Below are positions 39,334-64,000 of a stretch of 64,000 nt of DNA, one piece after another. Both the position numbers and the translations under genes were made by a program. The DNA lies in NCBI GenBank assembly GCA_026025795.1, contig JAPEUG010000017.1:1-64000 (forward strand), written 5' to 3'. Under the pieces are notes generated by a model that was not told the origin of the DNA, ran no database searches, and saw only the letters and a program-made list of their open reading frames with translations. The stretch is from Thelocarpon superellum. Taxonomy: Eukaryota. Numbering within the stretch: position 1 is the first letter of the stretch; every line of letters starts with the position of its first letter.

Positions 39334-42300
39334 CTAAGGCATAATACTTTGCCTCCACCGATCAATAAGATCGCGCCGCTCTGGATGTAGGCCGGAGGAC
39401 TGTCGAGACAGGTGGAGGGCCGGCCCGTTACCCGTATTCATCTCGCCGCCATGCGTAGGCGGCGGGGGTCCCCATCCATGGTTCGCGTGTTGCATGCCTC
39501 CGTCCGGCGCCCCGTAGCAGCTGTACACCAACGGACGTCCGTAGTCGGCGGGGATGCCGTACCCATTGGGCGGTGGCGTGCCTGCGCCAGGACCCGGGAA
39601 GCCTCCGCTGGTCCGCCCAAGGTTCCACGCGGGTGGAGCCATTGGCTGCGACGGCGGGCGTCCGCCCGCGGCGGGGTGGGCGTGCAAGATGCTAGCCATG
39701 CTGTGCCGCTGTTTGACCACCGGGCTGCTCGCCACCGCCGCCCCACTCATGCTCGTTAGCTCACGGACCCGAGCCTCGCGCTCAGCTTGCACCTGGCGTT
39801 CAGCTCGGAGACGTTGACGGCGCTCGGCCAAGGACTCGCCCTCGGCCTCTGGTAGAGGAGCAGGTGCGGGTGCTGGGACAGGCATTGGTGCCGACATGGG
39901 AACTGGCATGGGAACCGGGGCAGGCATTGGTGCCGACATGGGAACCGGCATGGGAACCGGAGCAGGCATTGGTGCTGACATGGGGACCGGGGCAGGAGAG
40001 GGTGCCGGGACAGGCGCTGGTCTCGACATCGGAACTGGGGCAGGAACTGTTGCCGAGGCAGGCGCTGGTCTCGACATCGGGACCGGGGCAGGAAGTGGTT
40101 CCAGGACAGGCATTGGTCTCGACATGGGAACCGGCGGTGGCCGCGGCGCCGCATTCGGTGACGGAGGTAGACGCTTCGATGTTGGCCCAGTTTCGCCAAA
40201 GTGGTTCATCATCTCGCGCGCAAAGGAGTCGCTGATGGAGTGCCGCGAGGGCTTGGGCTTTCCCCCTCGGGCCTTCAGCCGCCGCCCGCGCTGGGCCAGG
40301 GTTTCCCCCTCGTGCTCGTCCTCATCCTGCCCGCTTTCCAGCTGGTCCGTCAGGCCCGGCACCTCCAGGGTGTAGCGCGGGGTCGGATCCTTCTCCACGG
40401 CGCTCGATCGTCGTCGCAGGGGCAGTCCAAGCCGCAGTCGGTCGCGTCGCCGTCGGAGCGGCTCTTCATCCTCGAGTTCGCGCTTCTCGATGAGGCCCAG
40501 CGGGAATCGATTGTCGAGACGCGACTTGGGCTTGCTGCCCGGGTAAAGGACGCCGAGCGGGACATCTTCGTCATCGTCGCTGTCTGGCATTCCGGGCACG
40601 CGGCCCACGGGCTCCTCCCACGCCAATGACACGTGCTTGTGACGCCGGGACTGCTGCTGCACTTGGGCGACCGCGTCGAGTTCCAGAAGTGTCGAGTGCA
40701 TGCCGTGCGGGTACGCCACGACAGGGTTACGTGTCCGCTGCCGTTGCTCGTGCTTGCGTAGTTGCAGTTCCGCAAGAAGAGTTGCGGGTGCCGCCGGCGG
40801 GGCCTCCTCCTTGGGGACCGTGTGATCGTCCTCACCCGGCGTCTCTCCCTCGAACTCATCGCGTTCCGCGACCGTGGGCTGCACTCCTCGATCCCCGGTG
40901 CGCTTCCCGCCAAGCTCCTCAAGAGCCGACGGAGTCCGCGGATGATCACCTTGGTCCGCATGATCATCGGAGCCCTCGTGCTCGAGGGACGGGGTGGGCG
41001 GTTGACTTGGAGCCTCGACCGGGGGCTCATCGTCCTTGATGTCTTCAAGCTCGCTGCCATGCCCCGAGTATCCTCCCACGCTCACGCGGCTGCTCATCTT
41101 CCTCTTCATCTCATCTGTGTGGTAGCTGCTCGCCCGTTTTCCGAGTAATACGTTGAGCGAGCTTCGGCTCTTGCGCGCCGCGAGCTTGCCGTCCGACGTG
41201 CTCGCCTTGAGTTGGGGGTCGGGTGACGACCGGGGCGGGCGGCGCACCGGCGCGTCCCGGCGATAGATGTCGGCGCCCGCTTGTCCGACGATGGGATGGT
41301 CGGTGAAGGCGTTGACGGGGGCATGGGCGGAGGCGTCCAGGATACTGTCGAGCGTCGCCACGGCCGACTCCTCCTTTACCTCGACGTCGTGCCCCGCCAT
41401 CGGCTGATCGAAGAACATGCTGGCACGGAGTTGGGGCGGGAGACCCGTGGGATCGCGGGTGCGGCGTCTCAACGCATCGCCGGCTGGAGCAGGGCCCGAT
41501 CCGGGATCTGCCGACGAGGGCGTCGGCTGCGCGTCTTCGACATCTTCCGGCCACGCGGAGGATCGTCGAGCCGCGGCCGGCGCAGAGTCTATCGCGACGG
41601 TACGCCGCTTATCGGCCGGAGCGGCCATGGGCATCTTCGACAATCGTTGCGGCAGATTGAGCATCATCGGCACGGGTGCGGGGTAGTATACCATGCCCGG
41701 TGCGGATGACGGATCTGCGTAGGAACGAGGGCGCCCACCGCCCATCATAGCTTGACCGGGCGGACTCCTCCGGCTGCTCCGGTCCGCAGGGCGTGACCGT
41801 ACCCGTGATTCCGCCGGGCGTCTCACCGGGCGTTCCACCGGGCGTTCCTCCGGACGTTCCACTGGCGTTTCTGTCGTTGCGGGCTCGACCGGAGTGAAGT
41901 GGACGCCGTCAAAATCCTGGAATGGGTTGCTCGCATCGTCGTCGCGAGGCTTCCTGCCCTCGAGCTGTAGAAGGGTATCATCACGATGCTGTCGAGGGAG
42001 CGCCGGTAAGGCTGGCAGCGGGCGGTCGGCATCGTGGATCCCCAGGCCTATCTGGGGTGCGGGCATGGACGGGTGCGAGGAGGCGTTGGAGCCAAACGAG
42101 GTATCTAATCGTAGCGACCTCCGATCGGATCCAGACGATCGAGGGGTTCGTGACGCTTGCGACGTGGATCGATATGATTGCGAGTAGGAGCGAGAGATGA
42201 TGGGGCCGGAGGGGGGATGGTAGTAGGCGGCAGGCGAGTAGCCGCCCGATCGGGCACTGTTGTTGGTGCCGATAATGGAATGGCGTGAGAGCGAGCCGGT

Positions 42301-49515: not shown

Positions 49516-50558
49516 GATGGGAAAGAGTAGATACACAGTTCTCGAATGGTTGAGGGAGGGCAGAGAGGAGTGATTCGAAGTCGGCACTGTTGCAAAGTTG
49601 GAGTAGTAGGTGACGTGGCGTTGTAGTCGTTATTCCCTAGGTCTTGAATAAATTCCAACATCTGAGTCCCCCTCTCTGACTTGCGCACCAGGGTAATCCT
49701 AGCATGTTCACAGCAAGGATGCTGCGGCACTTTCGTGTACAGCTTTTGGCAGCTGATCAGGACGCTCTGTTGCCATTGCGGTTACCATTGAACCTCAGCT
49801 TGAGGCTTCTGGCAGGGACGAGCCAAGTTCCACAAGCAGCAGATGAGCATCATGCCTACACCCACTGTATGGCTTTCATCTTACAAGATCCTCCGTGTAC
49901 AACATGGCTGGTGATTATCGCTTTTTGAATCTTGCAGCATGCACCTGTCGACTATAGGCCTGCACGCATGACACCGCCACATTTTCAATTTCCATGGGCG
50001 CTCACGGCTTCCGTGGGAATGGTGATATTATTTACCTCGCATCAGGACTGTTCGCAGCTTGGTGGAACGCAAGTCCTCCGCCTCAAGCACCCATAGGATT
50101 CAAGAAATCTCACTGGCTTAGACTACGTTCACATCAAAGGCCCCCCTTGTCTCCAGCAGGTAGTGCAGCTCTAAATCCATTCGTTGTAGCGCCGCATACA
50201 TTTCAGTTATGTTGCACTCGGCGCTCTACTATTCCATCGATTGCTAGTCCATCAAACTTACTTGACACATCGGAGCCTGGCAAGAGGTCTCGGCGGCCAT
50301 TCTGGGGGTGCGGTCCACGACGCTTGGGTCGCGCGTGAACCTCGCGTGAGTCATGTGATTGTCATCATTGCGCTTTAACGACGGCAAAGGAGTCACTGCG
50401 GTGATGGAACCGACCTCCGCCCATGGACCCGCGGTGCGATGGATCGTTGGACGCGTGCGGGAGTCTCACACCTCATCCGTCGCAAAGGACTGATCAAGCC
50501 GCCATCACCACCACCCATGCGCTTGTCACGTTAGCCCTCTCCCGCAACTTCCGGCGCC

Positions 50559-52880
50559 ATGGACGAAGAAGACGGCGTAGATGGCGCCGAGGATAGAGGC
50601 GAATGGGACGGATTCCCACCCCGAGCATTCTCGTCCCGGCAGCCGCCGTCGTTCATTCCCGCAAAGCGCCCGAGGCATCCATCATCGTCGGCGGAGGATG
50701 CGATCATGGTCGAAGGAGGAGACGTCGAGGGTCATGGCTTCGTCCCTCCACCAGGCCCCGCACCCATGCCTCCAAAGGGCGGCAGCTCCTTTGCGGCCCG
50801 GATGATGGCCAAGATGGGCCACAAGGCTGGCCAAGGTCTGGGCGCCTCGGGACAGGGTATCGTCAACCCTATCGATGTCAAACTACGACCCCACGGCGTC
50901 GGCCTCGGTGCGATCCGCGAGAAGACGAAGCAGGCCAAGGCCGAGGAGAAGCTCCGCGCCGCGCGAGAAGGCCGGGTGGTGGATGACTCGTCCGAGGAAG
51001 AGCGAGCGAGTCGCAAGGCGCGGAAGACGGGCAGTGGCCTGAGCACGGCGCGAAGGATCGCGGCCACGCCCAAGGTCACCTACCGCACCGCCACCGAGAT
51101 CGCGGCGGCCGCGGAGGGGCTCGAGGTCCCCAACGTCCTCACGACTCTAATCGATGCCACCGGCAAGGAGCCGGGCCAGCGCATCTCCACGGCCGGATGG
51201 ATGACGCCGACCGCGGGCGATGATGCCGCGCCCGCCGAAGCGATCAAGATTGCGCAGCGGGCGCGACGGGATCTCGAGGCCTTTGCCGATGAGTGGAACG
51301 GGTTGACGGAGCGGAAGAGACATCTGGAACAGCAGGAGGCACAACTGCGCCGAGAGCTAGAAGGACAACAGAACGCCGCGCAGCGTCTGAAGGGCGTCGT
51401 CGAGGCCGTGCTGGCGCTAGAGCGTCGCGAGACCCCCCCCGCCAGCGCGTCGACACATGGTATAGATCACGCATTCGACCAGACCTTGGCCCGCTTGGAG
51501 ATTCTCCAAGTGGATTTGGGCGACGAGGTGGATCACCACCGGCTTGCCGATCTCGCTGTGGCCGCGTTGCACCCGGCCTTTCGGGAGGCCATCTCGCAGT
51601 GGGAGCCGTGGTCCGACCCGACCTTCTTGGTGTCATCTCTCGTACGCCTGCAGACCATTCTGGGATCGCATGCCCCGCCCACCCTCGATGCCTTGACCCT
51701 TCACCCTGCTCCAGACGCGGCCCGGCCCTCCAGCCGGAGCACCACGCCGTATGAGAGTATGATGTACACGCTCTGGCTCCCCAAGATTCGGAGCCTCATC
51801 ATCAACGAGTGGGATGTACATGACCCGTCGTCCCTCGTCTCCCTGGTCGCAGCGTGGAAGGAAGTGCTGCCAGGATTTGTCTACACGCACGTGGTCGACC
51901 AACTGATCGTGCAAAAGCTCAGCACGGCGGTGACGGAATGGAATCCGCGTCTCGCATCGCTGCACCGCGACCGCGGCCTTCCCCCCCACATCTGGCTCTT
52001 CCCTTGGCTCCCCTACCTTGACGAGCATCACACAAATCCCGTCAGTCCGACTGGCTTGTTGTCGGATGTGAAGCGGAAGTTCCGCGTGGTTCTCGACACG
52101 TGGAATCTAACGCGCGGCGTGGTCGACGGCTTGCAGCACTGGAAGGAGGTGCTCCGAGGCGAGCTCGACAAGGTACTCATCCGACATCTCTTACCCCGGC
52201 TCGCGCAGCACCTTCACACCTCCTTCCACATCGATCCCGCCGACCAGCTGCTCGCCCCACTGGAGCAGGTCTTGCGCTGGAAAGACTTCTTTCGGCCGAC
52301 GGCCATGGCGCAGCTGCTCGTGGCCGAGTTCTTCCCCAAGTGGCTTAGCACGCTCTACGTCTGGCTGACGTCGGCACCCAACTACGAGGAGGTGGGCGAA
52401 TGGCTCGGCTGGTGGAAGATGCAGATCCCGGAGGAGATCAGCCAAGTGCGCGTCGTGGGCGAGCAATGGGAGAAGGGCCTGGCCATGATCAACCAGGCCT
52501 TGGACCTGGGCGACCGCGCACGCACCGACCTTCCCATCCCCATCACCGAGACCATCCCCCCGCCCCTTCACACCGCCCCCGCACCCCGCGAACCCGTCCC
52601 GGTCGCGCCCGCCGCACAGCCAGCAGCCGAGGAGACGACGTTCAAGGACGTAGTGGAGGAGTGGTGCGCTGCCGAGGATCTCCTTCTGGTGCCGCTGCGC
52701 GAGGCCCACCAACAGCATGGCTTGCCCCTCTTTCGCCTCACCGCCAGTGCCGATGCGCGCGGTGGTGTACTCGTCTACATGAAGGGCGACGTCGTCTGGG
52801 CGCAGAAGAAAACGGACCGCAGTCTCTGGGAGCCGGTGGCACTCGACGAACACCTCATCCGCCGCGCCGAAGGTCGCTAA
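50559..52880 (+). CDS. NTR1: Spliceosome disassembly factor TFIP11/Ntr1/Spp382 (G-patch + GCFC domain)
   Basis: G-patch SFAARMMAKMGHKAGQGLGASGQGIVNPIDVKLRPHGVGLG and a coiled coil. GCFC motifs WLPKIR, HIWLFPWLP, IDPADQ, EFFPKW, PNYEEV..W..WWK. C-terminal TFKDVVEEWC. Confidence 0.92.
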   Translation: MDEEDGVDGAEDRGEWDGFPPRAFSSRQPPSFIPAKRPRHPSSSAEDAIMVEGGDVEGHGFVPPPGPAPMPPKGGSSFAARMMAKMGHKAGQGLGASGQGIVNPIDVKLRPHGVGLGAIREKTKQAKAEEKLRAAREGRVVDDSSEEERASRKARKTGSGLSTARRIAATPKVTYRTATEIAAAAEGLEVPNVLTTLIDATGKEPGQRISTAGWMTPTAGDDAAPAEAIKIAQRARRDLEAFADEWNGLTERKRHLEQQEAQLRRELEGQQNAAQRLKGVVEAVLALERRETPPASASTHGIDHAFDQTLARLEILQVDLGDEVDHHRLADLAVAALHPAFREAISQWEPWSDPTFLVSSLVRLQTILGSHAPPTLDALTLHPAPDAARPSSRSTTPYESMMYTLWLPKIRSLIINEWDVHDPSSLVSLVAAWKEVLPGFVYTHVVDQLIVQKLSTAVTEWNPRLASLHRDRGLPPHIWLFPWLPYLDEHHTNPVSPTGLLSDVKRKFRVVLDTWNLTRGVVDGLQHWKEVLRGELDKVLIRHLLPRLAQHLHTSFHIDPADQLLAPLEQVLRWKDFFRPTAMAQLLVAEFFPKWLSTLYVWLTSAPNYEEVGEWLGWWKMQIPEEISQVRVVGEQWEKGLAMINQALDLGDRARTDLPIPITETIPPPLHTAPAPREPVPVAPAAQPAAEETTFKDVVEEWCAAEDLLLVPLREAHQQHGLPLFRLTASADARGGVLVYMKGDVVWAQKKTDRSLWEPVALDEHLIRRAEGR

Positions 52881-54341: not shown

Positions 54342-54431
54342 TGTTGGAATCAGAGCTGAATTGCTAATCTACGCGTAGTCGGGATAGTGATAGGATTGGG
54401 CACGTGATCAGATCACGTGCGCGCTCGTACA
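54342..54431. mobile_element. 90-bp TG..CA element (mini solo-LTR or Ginger-type MITE), copy 2
   Basis: TGTTGGAATCAGAGCTGAATTGCTAATCTACGCGT...GCGCTCGTACA. 4-bp TSD CACG at 54338-54341 and 54432-54435. Perfect hairpin GCACGTGATC-A-GATCACGTGC. Homologous to 2820-2905. Confidence 0.85.
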
Positions 54432-54823
54432 CACGTAACGAAACGGTGTATTGCAGCTGACCTTCATTGGTTGTTGAAATTCTAACCATAGTGACTGAGA
54501 CGGACATCAACGAACGTTCAGCTGCCCATCAATTTTCAGCTGGTCCGTTCAGGGTCAAACGAGATCCCTCGTCGTGTCAAGGTCATCACGCCTGCTTGAG
54601 GAATATACCCTCAAGTTCTGATCCTAGGCCGTGAGTACAGTTCACTAAGGTCCCGCACGGACTTTTCAAATCCCGACGCGTTATTTTGGATCCTCATGAC
54701 GTCTTTGGGTACGAGCATGATCCTTCTTCCCTGGTCTCTTGGAATATGTCAACCTCCTGCTTTTCCTCTCGCGTCACGTCTGCAGGTAGGGCAAGAGCTC
54801 TTCGCTCAACTCCTCCGTACGAG

Positions 54824-59018: not shown

Positions 59019-59369
59019 TGTCGGAGGCGACTTTGCCGGGCCTATAACGTTCATTATTACCCTCCTACTGCGCGCCCATGTTTTGGCGGCGGAGCGAGTA
59101 TAGACCGTGCCTTGCCGCCGAGAACACGCCTTCTGGGCTTGTGAATGACTGTACAACGGGCATCTTTTCCGCTAACACGACGAGTCGTTGTTTCGCCCGG
59201 CCAAAAGGCGACCAAGCGTGGCCGATCCCTACTGACGCACCCCGGTTTATTGCACGGAAGATGGGTGGTTTCAGCTACGGAAGCTATCCGCCGTTCTAAT
59301 ATACAGCTTTTGTGGGTCACGTGAGCCGGCTTACTCAGAAGCCTCAAGCTCCCGTATGGAGCCTCCACA
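59019..59369 (-). repeat. Probable 3' LTR of the Ty3/Gypsy element (about 351 bp)
   Basis: Minus strand starts TGTGGAGGC and ends GCCTCCGACA (near-perfect inverted termini). It is preceded by PPT AAGAAGGGGGGG (59385-59374). Internal order is CACGTG (59318), TATA-like GTATATTA (59304-59297), then AATAAA (59251-59246). The partner LTR is outside the window. Confidence 0.55.
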
Positions 59370-59503
59370 GGCGCCCCCCCTTCTTGAACCAAGCCCCCGC
59401 GAGGTCTGCCAGCTATTTGATCTTATCGTGGTTCCCCGTCTGTCGTAGACGTTCTGCCGTAGCAGTCCGTCGTCCAGCCTCCCGGTCGTCGCTCGTAGCC
59501 GCG

Positions 59504-61984
59504 TCAACTCGATGGGTTGTAATCCGCGTCGGTAGACGTTCGTCGTTCTTCCGCTCCGATCGACTGGCCTTCCATAGCCGTTGGCGTCTCCTTGTTGGCG
59601 CCTCTAGCTGTCCCTGGCTCTACCATAGCCGTAGGAGCTCGTGCCGGTTCGCTGGGTGATCCAGCTTGGCGCGTCAACCGTCTGTCGATGACCGCCTGTC
59701 GGAGGCGTGCCATAGCTTCCGCTGGTGTTTCCGTTCGCGTCTCCATTGCCGTAGGCTCTTCTTGAGCTACCGTCGATGGTTCGATAACCGTCGGTGGCTC
59801 TTCTGGAACCATCGTAACGAACTCCGGAGCAGGGTCACTCTCGTCCGGTTGCTCCGCTGGGACATCCGATTCGTCCGTAAGAATCGGGAGATCCTCCATA
59901 GTGACGTCTCCCATCGGCAGTTGCTCCGACTCGTCCCCTATGGCCTGGGTCACTAGCTCGTCGGCTGCTGCCGTATCAACGATCTCTCCTGGGACGTCCC
60001 CTCCGGTGCCCGTCTCGCTCGACAGGTCCATGGCCGTGCTCGCGCTCTCCTCATCCTCCACACTGGGGAGGTAAGGGCACTGGGGATCCAGGGCGGATCG
60101 GTTGTAACGCTTGAGCATCCGTAGTCGGGCTTCCTGGGCCTTATCATACCCGTTGACGATCCGTAGTTCCGACGATGGTCGCGATGGTGGCAATCCGAGG
60201 TGCGCTCGCAGCCGTTTGGTCGCGGAATTGGTGCACCCCTGGAAGTGCTCTCCCCTACGCGGCTCCGGCAGCTCCATTCCGTTCAGGTACCGTAGCATGT
60301 GACGGAATTCCGCCAGCACGTAGAAGTCGTACTGCTGGCGTCGATTCCAGAGGCCGTCCAGGTCGAGCGTCGCACGCAACTCCGTCAAGTTCCAGTTCGG
60401 GTTGAAGTCTTCCTCGTTCCCCCGTACCCATTCGTCGTCGATCTCCTGCGTCGGGAAGAAGTATTCTACCCGCTCCTCGTGGCTGGGGCGGTCCTTCCAC
60501 ACCTCTTCGTCCCACCCCTCGGGTGGTCCCACAGACCCCTCCCGTTCATTGGTGAGATCGACGATGGCGGTGGCTTCGGCCGGAGTGGCTGCCCGATCCC
60601 CCCGTACTCCAGTCGTGATCGGAATCGGTAGACGCTTCTCCCGCGACGGTAAGATCTTCTCCAGCTCCCGTGGCGTCTCCACGGTTGCCAGTCCCGCTTC
60701 CGTAGCTTGCTTTCCGTCGGCTTCCCGGCGTAGATCCCGGTTCACCCCTTCGAGCGTCTCGAGCTCATTATGGAGGGACTCGATCTCGTCCCTCATTCGC
60801 TCTGCCGCATCGATGAGGTCCTCGATCATCCCGTTCTTCTGCGGGCAATCGCATTTCTCGTACTGCGGCCACAGGCTGTCGATAGCGCCGCTATGGACCA
60901 GATATCCGGCCTCGTTGACGTTCTCCGAGATCTCCATCTGCGTCTGAGCGTTCTGCTCCTTCGTCCGTAGCAGCGTCTCCCACGCTCGGCCTACCGCCAC
61001 GGCCATCACCACGGCTTCCTGGCGAAAGCGCTCGCAGACCGCAAGCATGTGGACGTGCGTCTCCGTCTTGTAGTCGAGCGCGGTCTGGCGCTTGATCGCC
61101 TGTTTCTTCTCTGCTGCCGTAAACGTCACCACGGCTCCCGCACCCGCGTCTTCCGCCATCGTCTCCGCCTCGGTGTTCGGGAGGGGGAGGTTCGCCGTTG
61201 CTGTAAACTCCTCGACGGCTCTCCCGTAGGCCTCGGACTGGGCCTTCATGGCCTCCGAGTTCCGCTTGAACATGTCGCGTCGCTGCTTCAACGACGCCAG
61301 GGTAGTCGACGCTCCCGTAACGAAGTTGCCAGTCTCGTCTCGCACCGCCCGTCTGGCGTGCTGCGTCGCTCGATATCTCACTTCACCGTTCGATGAGACT
61401 AGCTGCGGATGGATGTGCGCGTTCGCGTCGAGGTCGATCGCTCTCAGTTCGACATCCGTCAAGGCCGTACCGAAGGCGGACTTCGGGATGAGCTCTTCGA
61501 GCTCCTGCTTCCGTAGCAGGAGCCACTGCCAGCTCCGGTCGGCTTGGATCTGGTTCGTCTTACTAACGGTGACCTGGGCTTCGCCATTCGTATCACGGAA
61601 AAACAGCGCTGGTCCTTCTCGTTCCGGGGTAGGGATCGACGAGTCTTCCGTAGCCTTGCCCTTGCCTTTCTGTCGTCCTCGCTCGACAGCGATCGGGTCC
61701 TTCAGCTTGAATGTGACGTGCGGCTTGTTCTTGCCGGGCGTCTCCATGGGTTCGTCGTCGTCATCCGTATCGCTATCCTGCTCCGGGCTCTGGACCGCTT
61801 TGCGCTTCTTCGCTTGTCTACCCTTCCGTGCGGACGTCTGCTTCGATGGGGTCTGAACGGTCGGGGTGGGCGTCGTCATCGTCACGTCTGGTACCGGTGT
61901 TGTCGCCGCTGCTGCTGGTCCGGCTGCTGTCCTAGACGACGACGCTTCTGCCGTACTGGCAGCTTGATTCTTCCGTGCCGGCAT
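59504..61984 (-). CDS. 826-aa additional ORF of the retrotransposon (non-env; NLS-like, coiled coil, acidic repeat tail)
   Basis: Intronless and uninterrupted, on the same strand as pol and with similar CGTAG/ACGG-rich composition. RKGRQAKKRK, coiled coil IEDLIDAAERMRDEIESLHNELETLEGVNRDLRRE, and PTAM(E/V) repeats. No signal peptide or TM segment. Confidence 0.75.
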   Translation of the reverse strand: MPARKNQAASTAEASSSRTAAGPAAAATTPVPDVTMTTPTPTVQTPSKQTSARKGRQAKKRKAVQSPEQDSDTDDDDEPMETPGKNKPHVTFKLKDPIAVERGRQKGKGKATEDSSIPTPEREGPALFFRDTNGEAQVTVSKTNQIQADRSWQWLLLRKQELEELIPKSAFGTALTDVELRAIDLDANAHIHPQLVSSNGEVRYRATQHARRAVRDETGNFVTGASTTLASLKQRRDMFKRNSEAMKAQSEAYGRAVEEFTATANLPLPNTEAETMAEDAGAGAVVTFTAAEKKQAIKRQTALDYKTETHVHMLAVCERFRQEAVVMAVAVGRAWETLLRTKEQNAQTQMEISENVNEAGYLVHSGAIDSLWPQYEKCDCPQKNGMIEDLIDAAERMRDEIESLHNELETLEGVNRDLRREADGKQATEAGLATVETPRELEKILPSREKRLPIPITTGVRGDRAATPAEATAIVDLTNEREGSVGPPEGWDEEVWKDRPSHEERVEYFFPTQEIDDEWVRGNEEDFNPNWNLTELRATLDLDGLWNRRQQYDFYVLAEFRHMLRYLNGMELPEPRRGEHFQGCTNSATKRLRAHLGLPPSRPSSELRIVNGYDKAQEARLRMLKRYNRSALDPQCPYLPSVEDEESASTAMDLSSETGTGGDVPGEIVDTAAADELVTQAIGDESEQLPMGDVTMEDLPILTDESDVPAEQPDESDPAPEFVTMVPEEPPTVIEPSTVAQEEPTAMETRTETPAEAMARLRQAVIDRRLTRQAGSPSEPARAPTAMVEPGTARGANKETPTAMEGQSIGAEERRTSTDADYNPSS

Positions 61985-62299
61985 CGTGCCTGTCGTATGT
62001 GCGGGGTCTTCTATCGTTGATGTGGGACGGGGTGGCGTAAGCTCAACGGTCGGAGGAAAGAGGAAGAAGAAGACGAAGAGCTGAAGGAAGAGATGTGACT
62101 GAGAGGTGGCGTGTTATGTCCACCTGCCGCAGCTAGCGCGTAAACAACTCTCGCGTCGACGCCAGCTCCCATAGCAACATCGGTGAATTGAAGCAATTGC
62201 TAGAAGCATCGCGAAAAATTGACACGCGTTCTATCGTAGCCATAACAATCGTATTGACAACACGTCTCCCCCCCTTCCATAGCCACCGACCCCGGTGGC

Positions 62300-64000
62300 T
62301 CAGTGTTCCACCTCGCGTAGGTCTAGTGCCCGTTGCTCCGGAATACCCGCCCGTGCCATGCTCCCCCGCTCGTAGATCGTTGAGACGCCGATGAAACCGA
62401 GATCGTTCTGCCGTGGGTAATACACCTTCATGTCATCGATGTGGTACCGCTTCTCATTTCCACCGTAGAGATCTCTCACGTAGCCCGAGACTCCTGACGA
62501 GGTCAGTCTGGTGAGCAGCCTCGGTCCGAACCATTTCGCATCGAGCTTTCTGCCGTAGTCCTTGTCCAAGCTCATGTCCCGGATGAGCACTAAGTCTCCG
62601 ACCTTAGGCGTCGTCCACATGGGGTTCTTCGCCTTTTCCATACGCGTATGTGATCTAGCGACCGCGAGCACCGCGTGCTCCCGTTGCTCATCGCGTCGTG
62701 CGATATGGAAACCCCAAGCTTCCATAGGGAAGTTATCCGCTTCCTCGAGCGTCACATGGTACGGTGGATCGTCGTCGCGATGCGTCCAGGCCGGTCTGAA
62801 TCCGAGCATCACCTCCGCGGGGGTGAACCCGTGCACCCGTACCAATCTCGTGTTGATATCGAGAGCCGCTTTCGGTAACGCTCTCCCCCATAGCGATCTC
62901 GACGGTAAGCCTCGCTCGAGCACCCACTTCCGTAGCTGGCTTATCACCAACTGAACGCTTCGCTCTGCCAGTCCCACTGACGCTGGATGAGATACCGGCG
63001 CAAGGTAGTACCGTGTCCCGTGTGACTCGAACAGGGCTTGCACCTCTGACCCCGTAAAGTGGGTCCCGTTGTCCGAGTAAACCGTCTTTGGCCACCCGTA
63101 GCAAGGACTTAGTCGATTGACCCACATGTCGTGGACCGCTTCCTGGTTGGCATGAGCGTACGGCTGTAGCCACAGCATCCGGCTGAAATAGTCGATGACG
63201 ATGAGCACATATCTGGCTCCCGTAGCCTCACACATCGGAGAGATCGGTCCGAGGAAGTCCATTCCTACCATATCGTATGGTTGGAAGTGTTGTATGGGCT
63301 TGAGGATCGCGGACTTTTTCCGTGGCCCCGTGTACTGGCATGCTTCACACGTACGGCAGTGCTTCTCGACGTCGTTCACTCGGGTCGGCCAGTAGTAGTT
63401 GCCCACCAGCTTCTCTAAGGTAACGGCCTTTGCGAAATGGCCGTGTTCCTCGTGAGCCCACTGTAGCGCTCTGGAGCACTCTTGCTCGACCAGGCACTTC
63501 GGTCGCGTGCCATTCGTCTCACGGTAAAGGAGCGCGGTGTCGGTGAGGTGGAACCGTAAGGATTGTCGTCGCAGCGCTCTGATCTCGCTCTCACCGCATC
63601 CCATCTGCCGTAGACCCTCCGTGCCTTCGGTAAGGAAGACGACGAGCTTGCTGTACCACTTGCTTCGCTCATACTTCTCGAGCTTAGCCGTCCTGATGAC
63701 CTGCGGTGGCTTCACCTCCACTTCCTCGGTCCCTTCCATAGGCTCGCTGCCTTCTCCGGTAAGTATCGCCGGCATGGCCATACGCTCCGTGTCTTCTGCG
63801 CGGGGTATGGTGGTGTAGGATCGCGGCATCCGTGACATCCCGTCGGCTATGCTCATGATATTCGCCTTGCCTGGTCGGTGGTGGATCTCGATGTCGTATT
63901 CCGTCAATCGATCGAGCCAGCGCGCCAGTCTCCCGTGGGAGTCAGTCCCGTTCCGCAGGATCGATGTGAGTGCCTCGTGGTCGGTGTAGACCTTCGTGGG
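62300..64000 (-). CDS. pol: Ty3/Gypsy Pol, partial: RNase H C-terminus + integrase
   Basis: Frame is open to the window edge. VYTDHEAL..GRLARWLDRLTEYDIEIHHRPGK.N..ADGMSR (RNase H), HEEHGHF..CRTCEAC (HHCC), GMDFLGP / YSDNGTHF / GLAERSV (DDE), KWFGP (GPY/F-like). No chromodomain. Confidence 0.95.
   Translation of the reverse strand, partial: PTKVYTDHEALTSILRNGTDSHGRLARWLDRLTEYDIEIHHRPGKANIMSIADGMSRMPRSYTTIPRAEDTERMAMPAILTGEGSEPMEGTEEVEVKPPQVIRTAKLEKYERSKWYSKLVVFLTEGTEGLRQMGCGESEIRALRRQSLRFHLTDTALLYRETNGTRPKCLVEQECSRALQWAHEEHGHFAKAVTLEKLVGNYYWPTRVNDVEKHCRTCEACQYTGPRKKSAILKPIQHFQPYDMVGMDFLGPISPMCEATGARYVLIVIDYFSRMLWLQPYAHANQEAVHDMWVNRLSPCYGWPKTVYSDNGTHFTGSEVQALFESHGTRYYLAPVSHPASVGLAERSVQLVISQLRKWVLERGLPSRSLWGRALPKAALDINTRLVRVHGFTPAEVMLGFRPAWTHRDDDPPYHVTLEEADNFPMEAWGFHIARRDEQREHAVLAVARSHTRMEKAKNPMWTTPKVGDLVLIRDMSLDKDYGRKLDAKWFGPRLLTRLTSSGVSGYVRDLYGGNEKRYHIDDMKVYYPRQNDLGFIGVSTIYERGSMARAGIPEQRALDLREVEH

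Follow-up and report, generated by a model that had tools for sequence, protein, structure and literature searches.

The DNA analyzed here (the window) comprises 64,000 nucleotides of Thelocarpon superellum, namely positions 1 to 64,000 of the forward strand of contig JAPEUG010000017.1 in assembly GCA_026025795.1. In our naming the 19-Mb host assembly is G000 and the window is G000:C79:1-64000. At its right end lies a Ty3/gypsy (Metaviridae) retrotransposon of 9,544 bp, which occupies the minus strand, runs past the right edge of the window and carries a third gene, ORF3, between pol and the 3′ long terminal repeat (LTR) (Table 1). A preliminary description of the locus had called the element intact, and indeed its gag, protease, reverse transcriptase (RT), RNase H and integrase regions are all open and in Ty3/gypsy order. 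The first open reading frame (ORF1; 899 codons from stop to stop) encodes gag, a zinc knuckle and protease, of which the knuckle and protease score below the Pfam cut-offs, and pol (1,189 codons) encodes RT, RNase H and integrase. The pol gene is in the -1 frame relative to ORF1, and a -1 frameshift signal is present: a GGGAAAA sequence just 5′ of the ORF1 stop, with a hairpin behind it whose folding energy is -41.9 kcal/mol (z -6.2; 0 of 200 shuffles). As described earlier, pol ends at 62300, about 315 bp with a CT-rich tract follow, and an uninterrupted sense ORF of 826 amino acids begins; this ORF ends 134 bp before the LTR, and the polypurine tract is present as well.

The preliminary description had correctly recognized a TG...CA LTR but had extended it to 59019-59369, which is 214 bp too long. 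The region has a single long repeat, at 59233-59369, and 59019-59228 is host flank outside the element. The 5′ LTR, primer site and target-site duplication expected further to the right were all found. The two LTRs (59233-59369 and G000:C79:68640-68776) are 137 bp long with no mismatches, so the 5′ LTR does not match the sequence just after the integrase. The primer site, 18 bases starting 2 bases past the 5′ LTR, is complementary to the 3′ end of tRNA-Asn plus CCA; the matching tRNA gene, at G000:C390, contains an intron and has the anticodon GTT (read by eye). A 4-bp duplication, GTAG on the element's strand, lies outside both LTRs. The internal part of the element is single copy in the genome, and at least about 40 LTR-only matches (79-98% identity) occur elsewhere. 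Pfam gave no Chromo match in pol at E-values up to 1 and 0.1, in agreement with the earlier remark that a chromodomain is absent; the same library did detect the decayed chromodomain of another gypsy element of G000, on C269. Because its LTRs are identical and its frames are open, the insertion is very recent. The window element is therefore a very recent, intact, non-chromovirus Ty3/gypsy insertion.

Table 1. Features of the retrotransposon at the right end of the window (window coordinates unless a contig is given).
Feature	Position	Strand	Remarks
Target-site duplication	59229..59232	.	4 bp, GTAG on element strand; twin at G000:C79:68777-68780
3′ LTR	59233..59369	-	137 bp, TG...CA; one sense and one antisense TACGGNAG
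Polypurine tract	59370..59385	-	
ORF3	59504..61984	-	826 amino acids
ORF3 conserved core	60842..61576	-	residues 137-381; predicted fold elements; no Pfam or structural match
NLS-like (nuclear localization signal-like) basic patch RKGRQAKKRK	61799..61828	-	residues 53-62; putative function
Pyrimidine-rich (CT-rich) tract 5′ of ORF3	62045..62103	-	candidate internal promoter or splice acceptor
3′ part of pol	62300..64000	-	RNase H end and integrase, no chromodomain; continues to G000:C79:65869
gag-protease	to G000:C79:68421	-	slippery site GGGAAAA and hairpin at about 65737-65743
Dispersed TAYGGNAG	59233..64000	-	21 sense copies in the window part; 43 in the whole element

The ORF3 protein consists of a low-complexity N-terminus, a conserved core, a coiled coil, a Trp/Tyr-rich block and an acidic tail. 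The NLS-like patch noticed earlier is present, and PTAM recurs at residues 744, 784 and 801. Its length of 826 residues compares with 599 for the longest frame among 500 resamples of the region with matched composition. No membrane helix was found (top 19-residue hydropathy 1.14, N-terminus hydrophilic by eye), which bears out the earlier judgement that the ORF does not encode an envelope protein, and a hydrophobic segment was likewise lacking in ORF3 and six tested relatives (top values 0.78-1.33). The 3-mer make-up of ORF3 correlates with those of gag and pol at r 0.89-0.91, as against 0.68 for a host gene. The ORF thus has the composition of the element, and also its motif load (described below), so the suggestion of captured cargo, if meant as a recent capture, is not supported.

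An exhaustive protein search with ORF3 retrieved 11 other proteins (E 3e-8 to 5e-4), all aligned over residues ~100-385, and a profile search added 15 more, so that there are 26 database relatives in all; these were compared as proteins only, apart from their genomic context. Three of the profile-found relatives are annotated as hypothetical proteins of lichen fungi. The conserved positions of the core include E179, P193, L195, G200, R203, Q249, H312, E318, R321 and E323, and most relatives have HxCxCxxC at its C-terminus, of which the window protein retains CxC alone. The conserved part is therefore residues ~137-381, and not the Trp/Tyr block that had been singled out as the globular portion; this block is not common to the relatives, with the possible exception, by eye, of P0005. 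A canonical fungal branch-point and acceptor occur 5′ of ORF3 in five relatives but not in the window, a comparison that has no chance control. Two predicted structures (predicted local distance difference test, pLDDT, 65 and 58; predicted template modelling score, pTM, 0.31 and 0.38) contain a beta-hairpin, short helices and two helices of 30-60 residues. Pfam returned nothing at cut-off for ORF3 and its relatives, a word-index search with the single ORF3 protein found only itself, the ESM Atlas gave nothing at 0.9 or above, and the ORF3 profile matched no PDB sequence under E 5. The fold search proposed in the preliminary description was equally unrewarding: with these two weak models, Foldseek (PDB and viral models) and VIA-align gave no match below E 0.3, the best Z values (5.3 and 5.7) reflecting generic long helices only. 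The viral and prokaryote collections contained no relative of pol or ORF3. Residues ~137-381 define an unnamed domain family, helical by prediction.

To see which other elements carry this gene, we used a metagenome scan with a pol alignment, in which ORF3 played no part in recruitment and which kept 77 loci. The ORF3 profile matches two of them, L044 and L045, and in both the match lies between integrase and LTR. That of L044 is an ORF of 858 codons (E 1e-32, 107.5 bits), and the LTR overlap of this locus is 127 bp and identical; in L045, whose LTRs are 97% identical, the homologue is in two frames (E 4e-14 and 2e-5; 48.4 and 19.6 bits). When the window protein was left out of the profile, the window ORF3 still scored 103.5 bits, with 107.5 for L044 and 48.4 for L045, whereas reversed decoys reached at most 1.3. 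The ORF3 genes of the window (826 codons) and L044 (858 codons) are open although their cores are only 22-23% identical. A host paralogue was not found in G000 at the sensitivity of a search in which the ORF of L044 retrieves the window's ORF3 alone. The question raised earlier, whether the ORF travels with its pol, was thus answered by homologues behind homologous pol genes in two other elements. ORF3 has belonged to the lineage for a long time, and the presence of the TAYGGNAG load in ORF3 too indicates that it has long evolved with the element.

The same position holds other genes in related elements. Sense ORFs also follow the integrase in L043 (704 codons), L047/L048 (one element; 1,146 codons), L054 (467 codons) and G000:C161 (319 and 157 codons with one stop between), and they resemble neither the window ORF3 nor one another. 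The C161 ORF starts with a J-domain (Pfam E 1.2e-5; 25.7 bits, below the cut-off of 27.8) in which HPD is present. This element is decayed, with an integrase region 41% identical to that of the window and LTRs of 183 bp at 97%; its gag-pol region seems partly duplicated (L041, L042:1335-2768). The C-terminal part of the L047 ORF (L047:7054-10491) is PhyH-like, that is, similar to 2-oxoglutarate/iron oxygenases (Atlas 0.88, a lead only), with HxD...H visible by eye, and in L048 the oxygenase-type ORF lies between the integrase end and the gag of the next copy, in a tandem arrangement. The ORFs of L043 (L043:6635-8746) and L054 (L054:11143-12543) have no Pfam match, and their contigs contain no LTR pair. 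LTR pairs enclose the third ORF in the window, L044, L045 and C161. At 22 other loci an LTR lies within about 0.6 kb of the integrase and there is no third ORF.

An RT tree with 108 rows, built by quick search, splits seven carrier rows from 21 ORF3-less rows by a branch with support 99; it dropped 10 loci with short RT pieces, including L054, L050, L051, L099-L101 and L117. A tree of RNase H-integrase (23 rows), which adds L054, gives the same split with support 89. On either tree a single change accounts for the carrier/ORF3-less label; both trees are unrooted, and many of the ORF3-less rows are near kin. The RT/integrase phylogeny suggested in the preliminary description therefore separates carriers from non-carriers, but it holds no named Ylt1 element. 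The ORF3 tree was set aside because of its prevailing long branches. On the window's side of the pol tree, a third sense ORF of at least 319 codons occurs in all seven distinct elements whose integrase end is complete and followed by 2 kb of DNA or more. Outside this count are L050/L051, L099-L101 and six short fragments; in L050/L051 the integrase is cut short and no sense ORF of 150 codons lies behind it. The slot has five unrelated types of occupant: the window's domain, the J-domain type, the dioxygenase-like type, and two without a Pfam match. Carriers of the window's ORF3 type are interleaved with other types, which points to replacement within the slot. In addition, the chromodomain-bearing gypsy element of G000:C269 (L141:463-8496; decayed, LTRs of 132 bp at 98.5%) has a post-pol ORF that starts with a J-domain, as does the ORF of C161, and the two ORFs also match over another region (E 1e-8). 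By these matches the same putative J-domain cargo is present in two distant gypsy lineages, C161 and C269, and the J-domain and PhyH-like occupants look like host-modulating proteins.

Fungal gypsy elements comprise chromoviruses and Ylt1-like elements, and some of them are depicted with an 'add. ORF' to which no function is assigned (PMC2864245, Fig. 3 legend). Ylt1-like elements (PMC2864245, PMC3248453) resemble that of the window in the order gag-protease-RT-RNase H-integrase, the lack of a chromodomain, the ascomycete hosts and a length of about 9.5 kb (9,453 bp for Ylt1; PMC5014426), but their LTRs are about 715 bp long as against 137 bp, and the window element has a large third ORF. This membership is judged by features, as the trees contained only unnamed relatives and no named Ylt1 was among the 120 listed matches; at least 33 relatives of pol exceed 50% identity. 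Thus, the LTR lineage that had been put forward as possibly undescribed probably belongs to the non-chromovirus (Ylt1-like) branch already known, and the part that looks undescribed is the third-ORF slot. The 'add. ORF' elements and Botrytis BcGypsy1 with its extra ORF brtn (bioRxiv 2021.04.13.439636) likewise have an extra gene inside a fungal Ty3/gypsy element; the portions available describe no family, clade-wide slot or motif, and these elements may overlap with the window clade. In bdelloid rotifers, LTR elements carry variable ORF3 types common to distant retroelement lineages (PMC5408684), to which we liken the J-type ORF of C161 and the chromodomain-bearing C269, and orchid gypsy elements carry an AlkB-type ORF (PMC9289625). 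As in the window clade, these are unrelated non-envelope third ORFs, an oxygenase included, but the hosts are animals or plants and the cargoes recognizable enzymes, whereas the window core has no known fold. The available text of PMC3248453, PMC5014426, PMC8307478, PMC10787394 and PMC13728883 contains nothing on a third ORF, and the searched literature, which covered few subscription papers and no Repbase, yielded no description of the ORF3 domain, the slot, the J-domain cargo or the motif. Non-envelope third ORFs in Ty3/gypsy elements are therefore already known; the unnamed domain family, the swappable slot and TAYGGNAG appear to be new against the literature searched.

We also examined the target sites, which resemble GTAC. 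A perfect 4-bp duplication flanks 16 of the 18 solo LTRs examined, and a 5-bp duplication none; the sequences are GTAC (10), GTGC (3) and ATAC, GTAG and CTAC (one each), with two imperfect. The target duplication of Ylt1 is 4 bp. GTAC duplications also occur, by eye, at the ORF3-less loci L055, L056, L064, L068, L074, L085 and L088. Since ORF3-less sisters have it too, the GTAC preference is a property of the integrase lineage, and the earlier proposal that ORF3 serves targeting is not supported as far as the target sequence is concerned. Targeting of tRNA genes was rejected, there being no tRNA gene near the LTR loci checked. The literature searched contained no description of a GTAC preference in fungal gypsy elements. 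The solo LTRs, comprising L003-L020 and some 20 others elsewhere in G000, are 87-98% identical, and most form an older subfamily with common differences.

Next, we consider the sequence motif of the element. Its top 5-mer is TACGG (66 copies against 10 expected), which extends to TAYGGNAG. This motif occurs 43 times in sense (3.2 expected) and five times in antisense, about once per 220 bp, with an even distribution across gag, pol and ORF3 and every codon phase represented. As many as 37 of the 43 sense copies are dispersed inside the three ORFs, where synonymous shuffles give 3.5 (gag 13 against 1.6, pol 14 against 1.1, ORF3 10 against 0.8; 0 of 300 shuffles). Outside the element, the remaining 59 kb of the window have no copy on this strand. 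Because the whole genome holds just 1,801 copies of TACGGNAG on both strands, its density on the element's sense strand is about 70 times the genomic value per strand. De novo motif search gave control elements top scores of 7-11 and the window 20; the counts for L045 have their value because they were tested a priori and not by this score. Enrichment is clear in L045 (11 against 1.6) and in a fragment on G000:C90 (6 in 1.7 kb) and weak in L044 (5 against 1.3), so that the motif is strong in two of the three carriers of the window's ORF3 type. It is absent in L043, L047, L054 and C161, the four carriers of other ORF types, and among the 22 ORF3-less loci L091 has 4 against 1.3. The C90 fragment (about 84650-86350, minus; L136) is a 5′ sibling with a 72% LTR, the same primer site and a partial gag of 55% identity; it is motif-rich with intact CpG, older and truncated, and pol and ORF3 are missing. 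The motif-rich window element, C90 and L045 have CHNC in the Gag zinc knuckle, whereas six motif-poor knuckles read CYNC, CYRC, CFTC, CFNC or CYTC. All three also keep an antisense copy in their LTRs. A UNCG-type hairpin was rejected as an explanation, as the flanks are not complementary and show no pairing bias against controls.

The ratio of observed to expected CpG dinucleotides distinguishes the element from other repeats. Of 16 other gypsy integrase loci in G000, 13 have a ratio of 0.07 or less, and the values for C161 and C269 are 0.40 and 0.06. The window element, by contrast, reaches 1.13 and the C90 fragment 1.02, with 1.05 for host DNA. Repeats in this host are thus stripped of CpG, and the solo LTRs indicate that the family has long been resident in the genome; the CpG retention of the window element fits an escape from methylation. 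The loci L025-L039 (G000:C1, C190, C556, C667 and others) are distant, CpG-free gypsy integrase remnants; several form pairs on a single contig with a spacing of 5-8 kb, and some are oriented towards each other.

Based on these results, we consider it most likely, with a probability of roughly 45%, that ORF3 is a soluble nuclear accessory protein countering host silencing. It would be made from its own shorter transcript, enter the nucleus via the basic patch, oligomerise via its long helices, and shield element copies or transcripts from the repeat-directed CpG methylation of the host. In a bolder version, which we consider rather unlikely, it would recognize its own element by TAYGGNAG, on RNA or DNA. 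Beyond position, conservation, composition and motif counts, we infer every step from sequence, including the anti-silencing and nuclear roles, which the preliminary description had already raised. A known parallel is the anti-silencing protein VANC of Arabidopsis VANDAL elements, a coiled-coil protein (PMC13547354) whose short binding motifs are situated in non-coding tandem repeats (PMC5735166). Both cases have a transposon-encoded accessory protein with a coiled coil, a motif accumulated in the cognate element and a host that methylates DNA; the VANC motifs, however, are in non-coding tandem repeats, whereas that of the window is dispersed and mostly in ORFs. Homology of ORF3 to VANC or MAIN was not found by Pfam, PDB-sequence or fold matching, the last with weak models. 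The fullest form of the idea is that ORF3 is a self-recognition factor without a recognized fold that binds TAYGGNAG and shields against CpG methylation, VANC-like but independently evolved, and that the slot holds interchangeable counter-defence genes exchanged even with chromoviruses; we regard this as rather unlikely.

Several observations weigh against a counter-silencing role. A third ORF as such is not protective, because the J-type carriers C161 and C269 are CpG-depleted, and youth, single copy number and LTRs too short for the repeat recognition of repeat-induced point mutation or methylation induced premeiotically could equally retain CpG. ORF3 has no fold or family match, and its models are weak. 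The motif does not follow ORF3 cleanly: L044 (5 against 1.3) is no better than the ORF3-less L088 (7 against 2.5), both at 1 of 300 shuffles, and L046, L052 and L096, pol fragments close to that of the window and of unknown ORF3 status, have 1, 0 and 1 copies. The strand bias of 43:5 suits RNA better than a double-stranded DNA site, and Gag could be the reader, because the motif-rich elements also have the CHNC knuckle in common. Thus, binding of TAYGGNAG by ORF3 is only suggestive on present sequence comparisons, and Gag is an equal candidate. This leads to a serious though doubtful alternative, in which TAYGGNAG is a dispersed packaging or coating signal for the Gag nucleocapsid and ORF3 has a task of its own at some stage of the particle cycle, such as RNA export, particle assembly or passage between nuclei and compartments of the hyphae. 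The strand bias, the even spread over gag, pol and ORF3, the shared knuckle and a slight motif excess in ORF3-less elements (about 51 against 33 over 22 loci, hand sum) would all be expected, but the Gag of L045 is 30% identical to that of the window, no closer than motif-poor Gags (22-30%), the motif has no hairpin preference, a genomic-RNA signal leaves the antisense LTR copy of the window, C90 and L045 unexplained, and the sisters replicate without any ORF3.

It also seems improbable that ORF3 is a chromatin tether steering integration to safe regions in place of the missing chromodomain. Such a tether would suit a pol without a chromodomain, the NLS-like patch and the coiled helices, and some other cue may operate, given that no checked LTR locus is near a tRNA gene; however, the GTAC target and 4-bp duplication are common to ORF3-less, chromodomain-less sisters, the chromodomain-bearing C269 also has a third ORF, and the slot is filled by unrelated proteins. 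Very improbable is a captured host gene carried as a passenger from which the element gains nothing. The annotated lichen-fungal proteins include a conserved subfamily (44-69% identity) that may represent host genes, but the genome has no second copy, the frames are open over 826 and 858 codons despite 22-23% core identity, composition and motif load are those of the element, and three elements have the gene in the same slot. An envelope or fusion protein is largely excluded: the position is that of env and long helices are predicted, but errantivirus-like env has a signal peptide and a transmembrane helix, whereas the hydropathy of ORF3 peaks at 1.14, no hydrophobic segment exists in its six relatives either, and the tail is acidic and disordered. 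A counter-silencing role for ORF3 would bear on how fungal gypsy elements, usually drawn as gag-pol only, survive under strong repeat silencing. In one branch a slot is reserved for accessory genes and has at least five unrelated occupants, and an intact new copy with a sharp candidate cis signal allows a direct test of ORF3 against Gag binding and of the effect on silencing.

The remainder of the window contains a few other features. A frame of 781 codons at 50535-52880 (+), with a glycine-rich, G-patch-like start, served as host control; it may resemble the spliceosome factor TFIP11/Ntr1. Degenerate direct repeats are present at the beginning of the contig (1-2315), and at 39825-40134 units of 12-48 bases are arrayed in tandem in an apparent proline-rich coding region. 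An 80-bp repeat at 2827-2906 and 54352-54432, 91-97% identical and 51.5 kb apart, is possibly a solo LTR or a small element.

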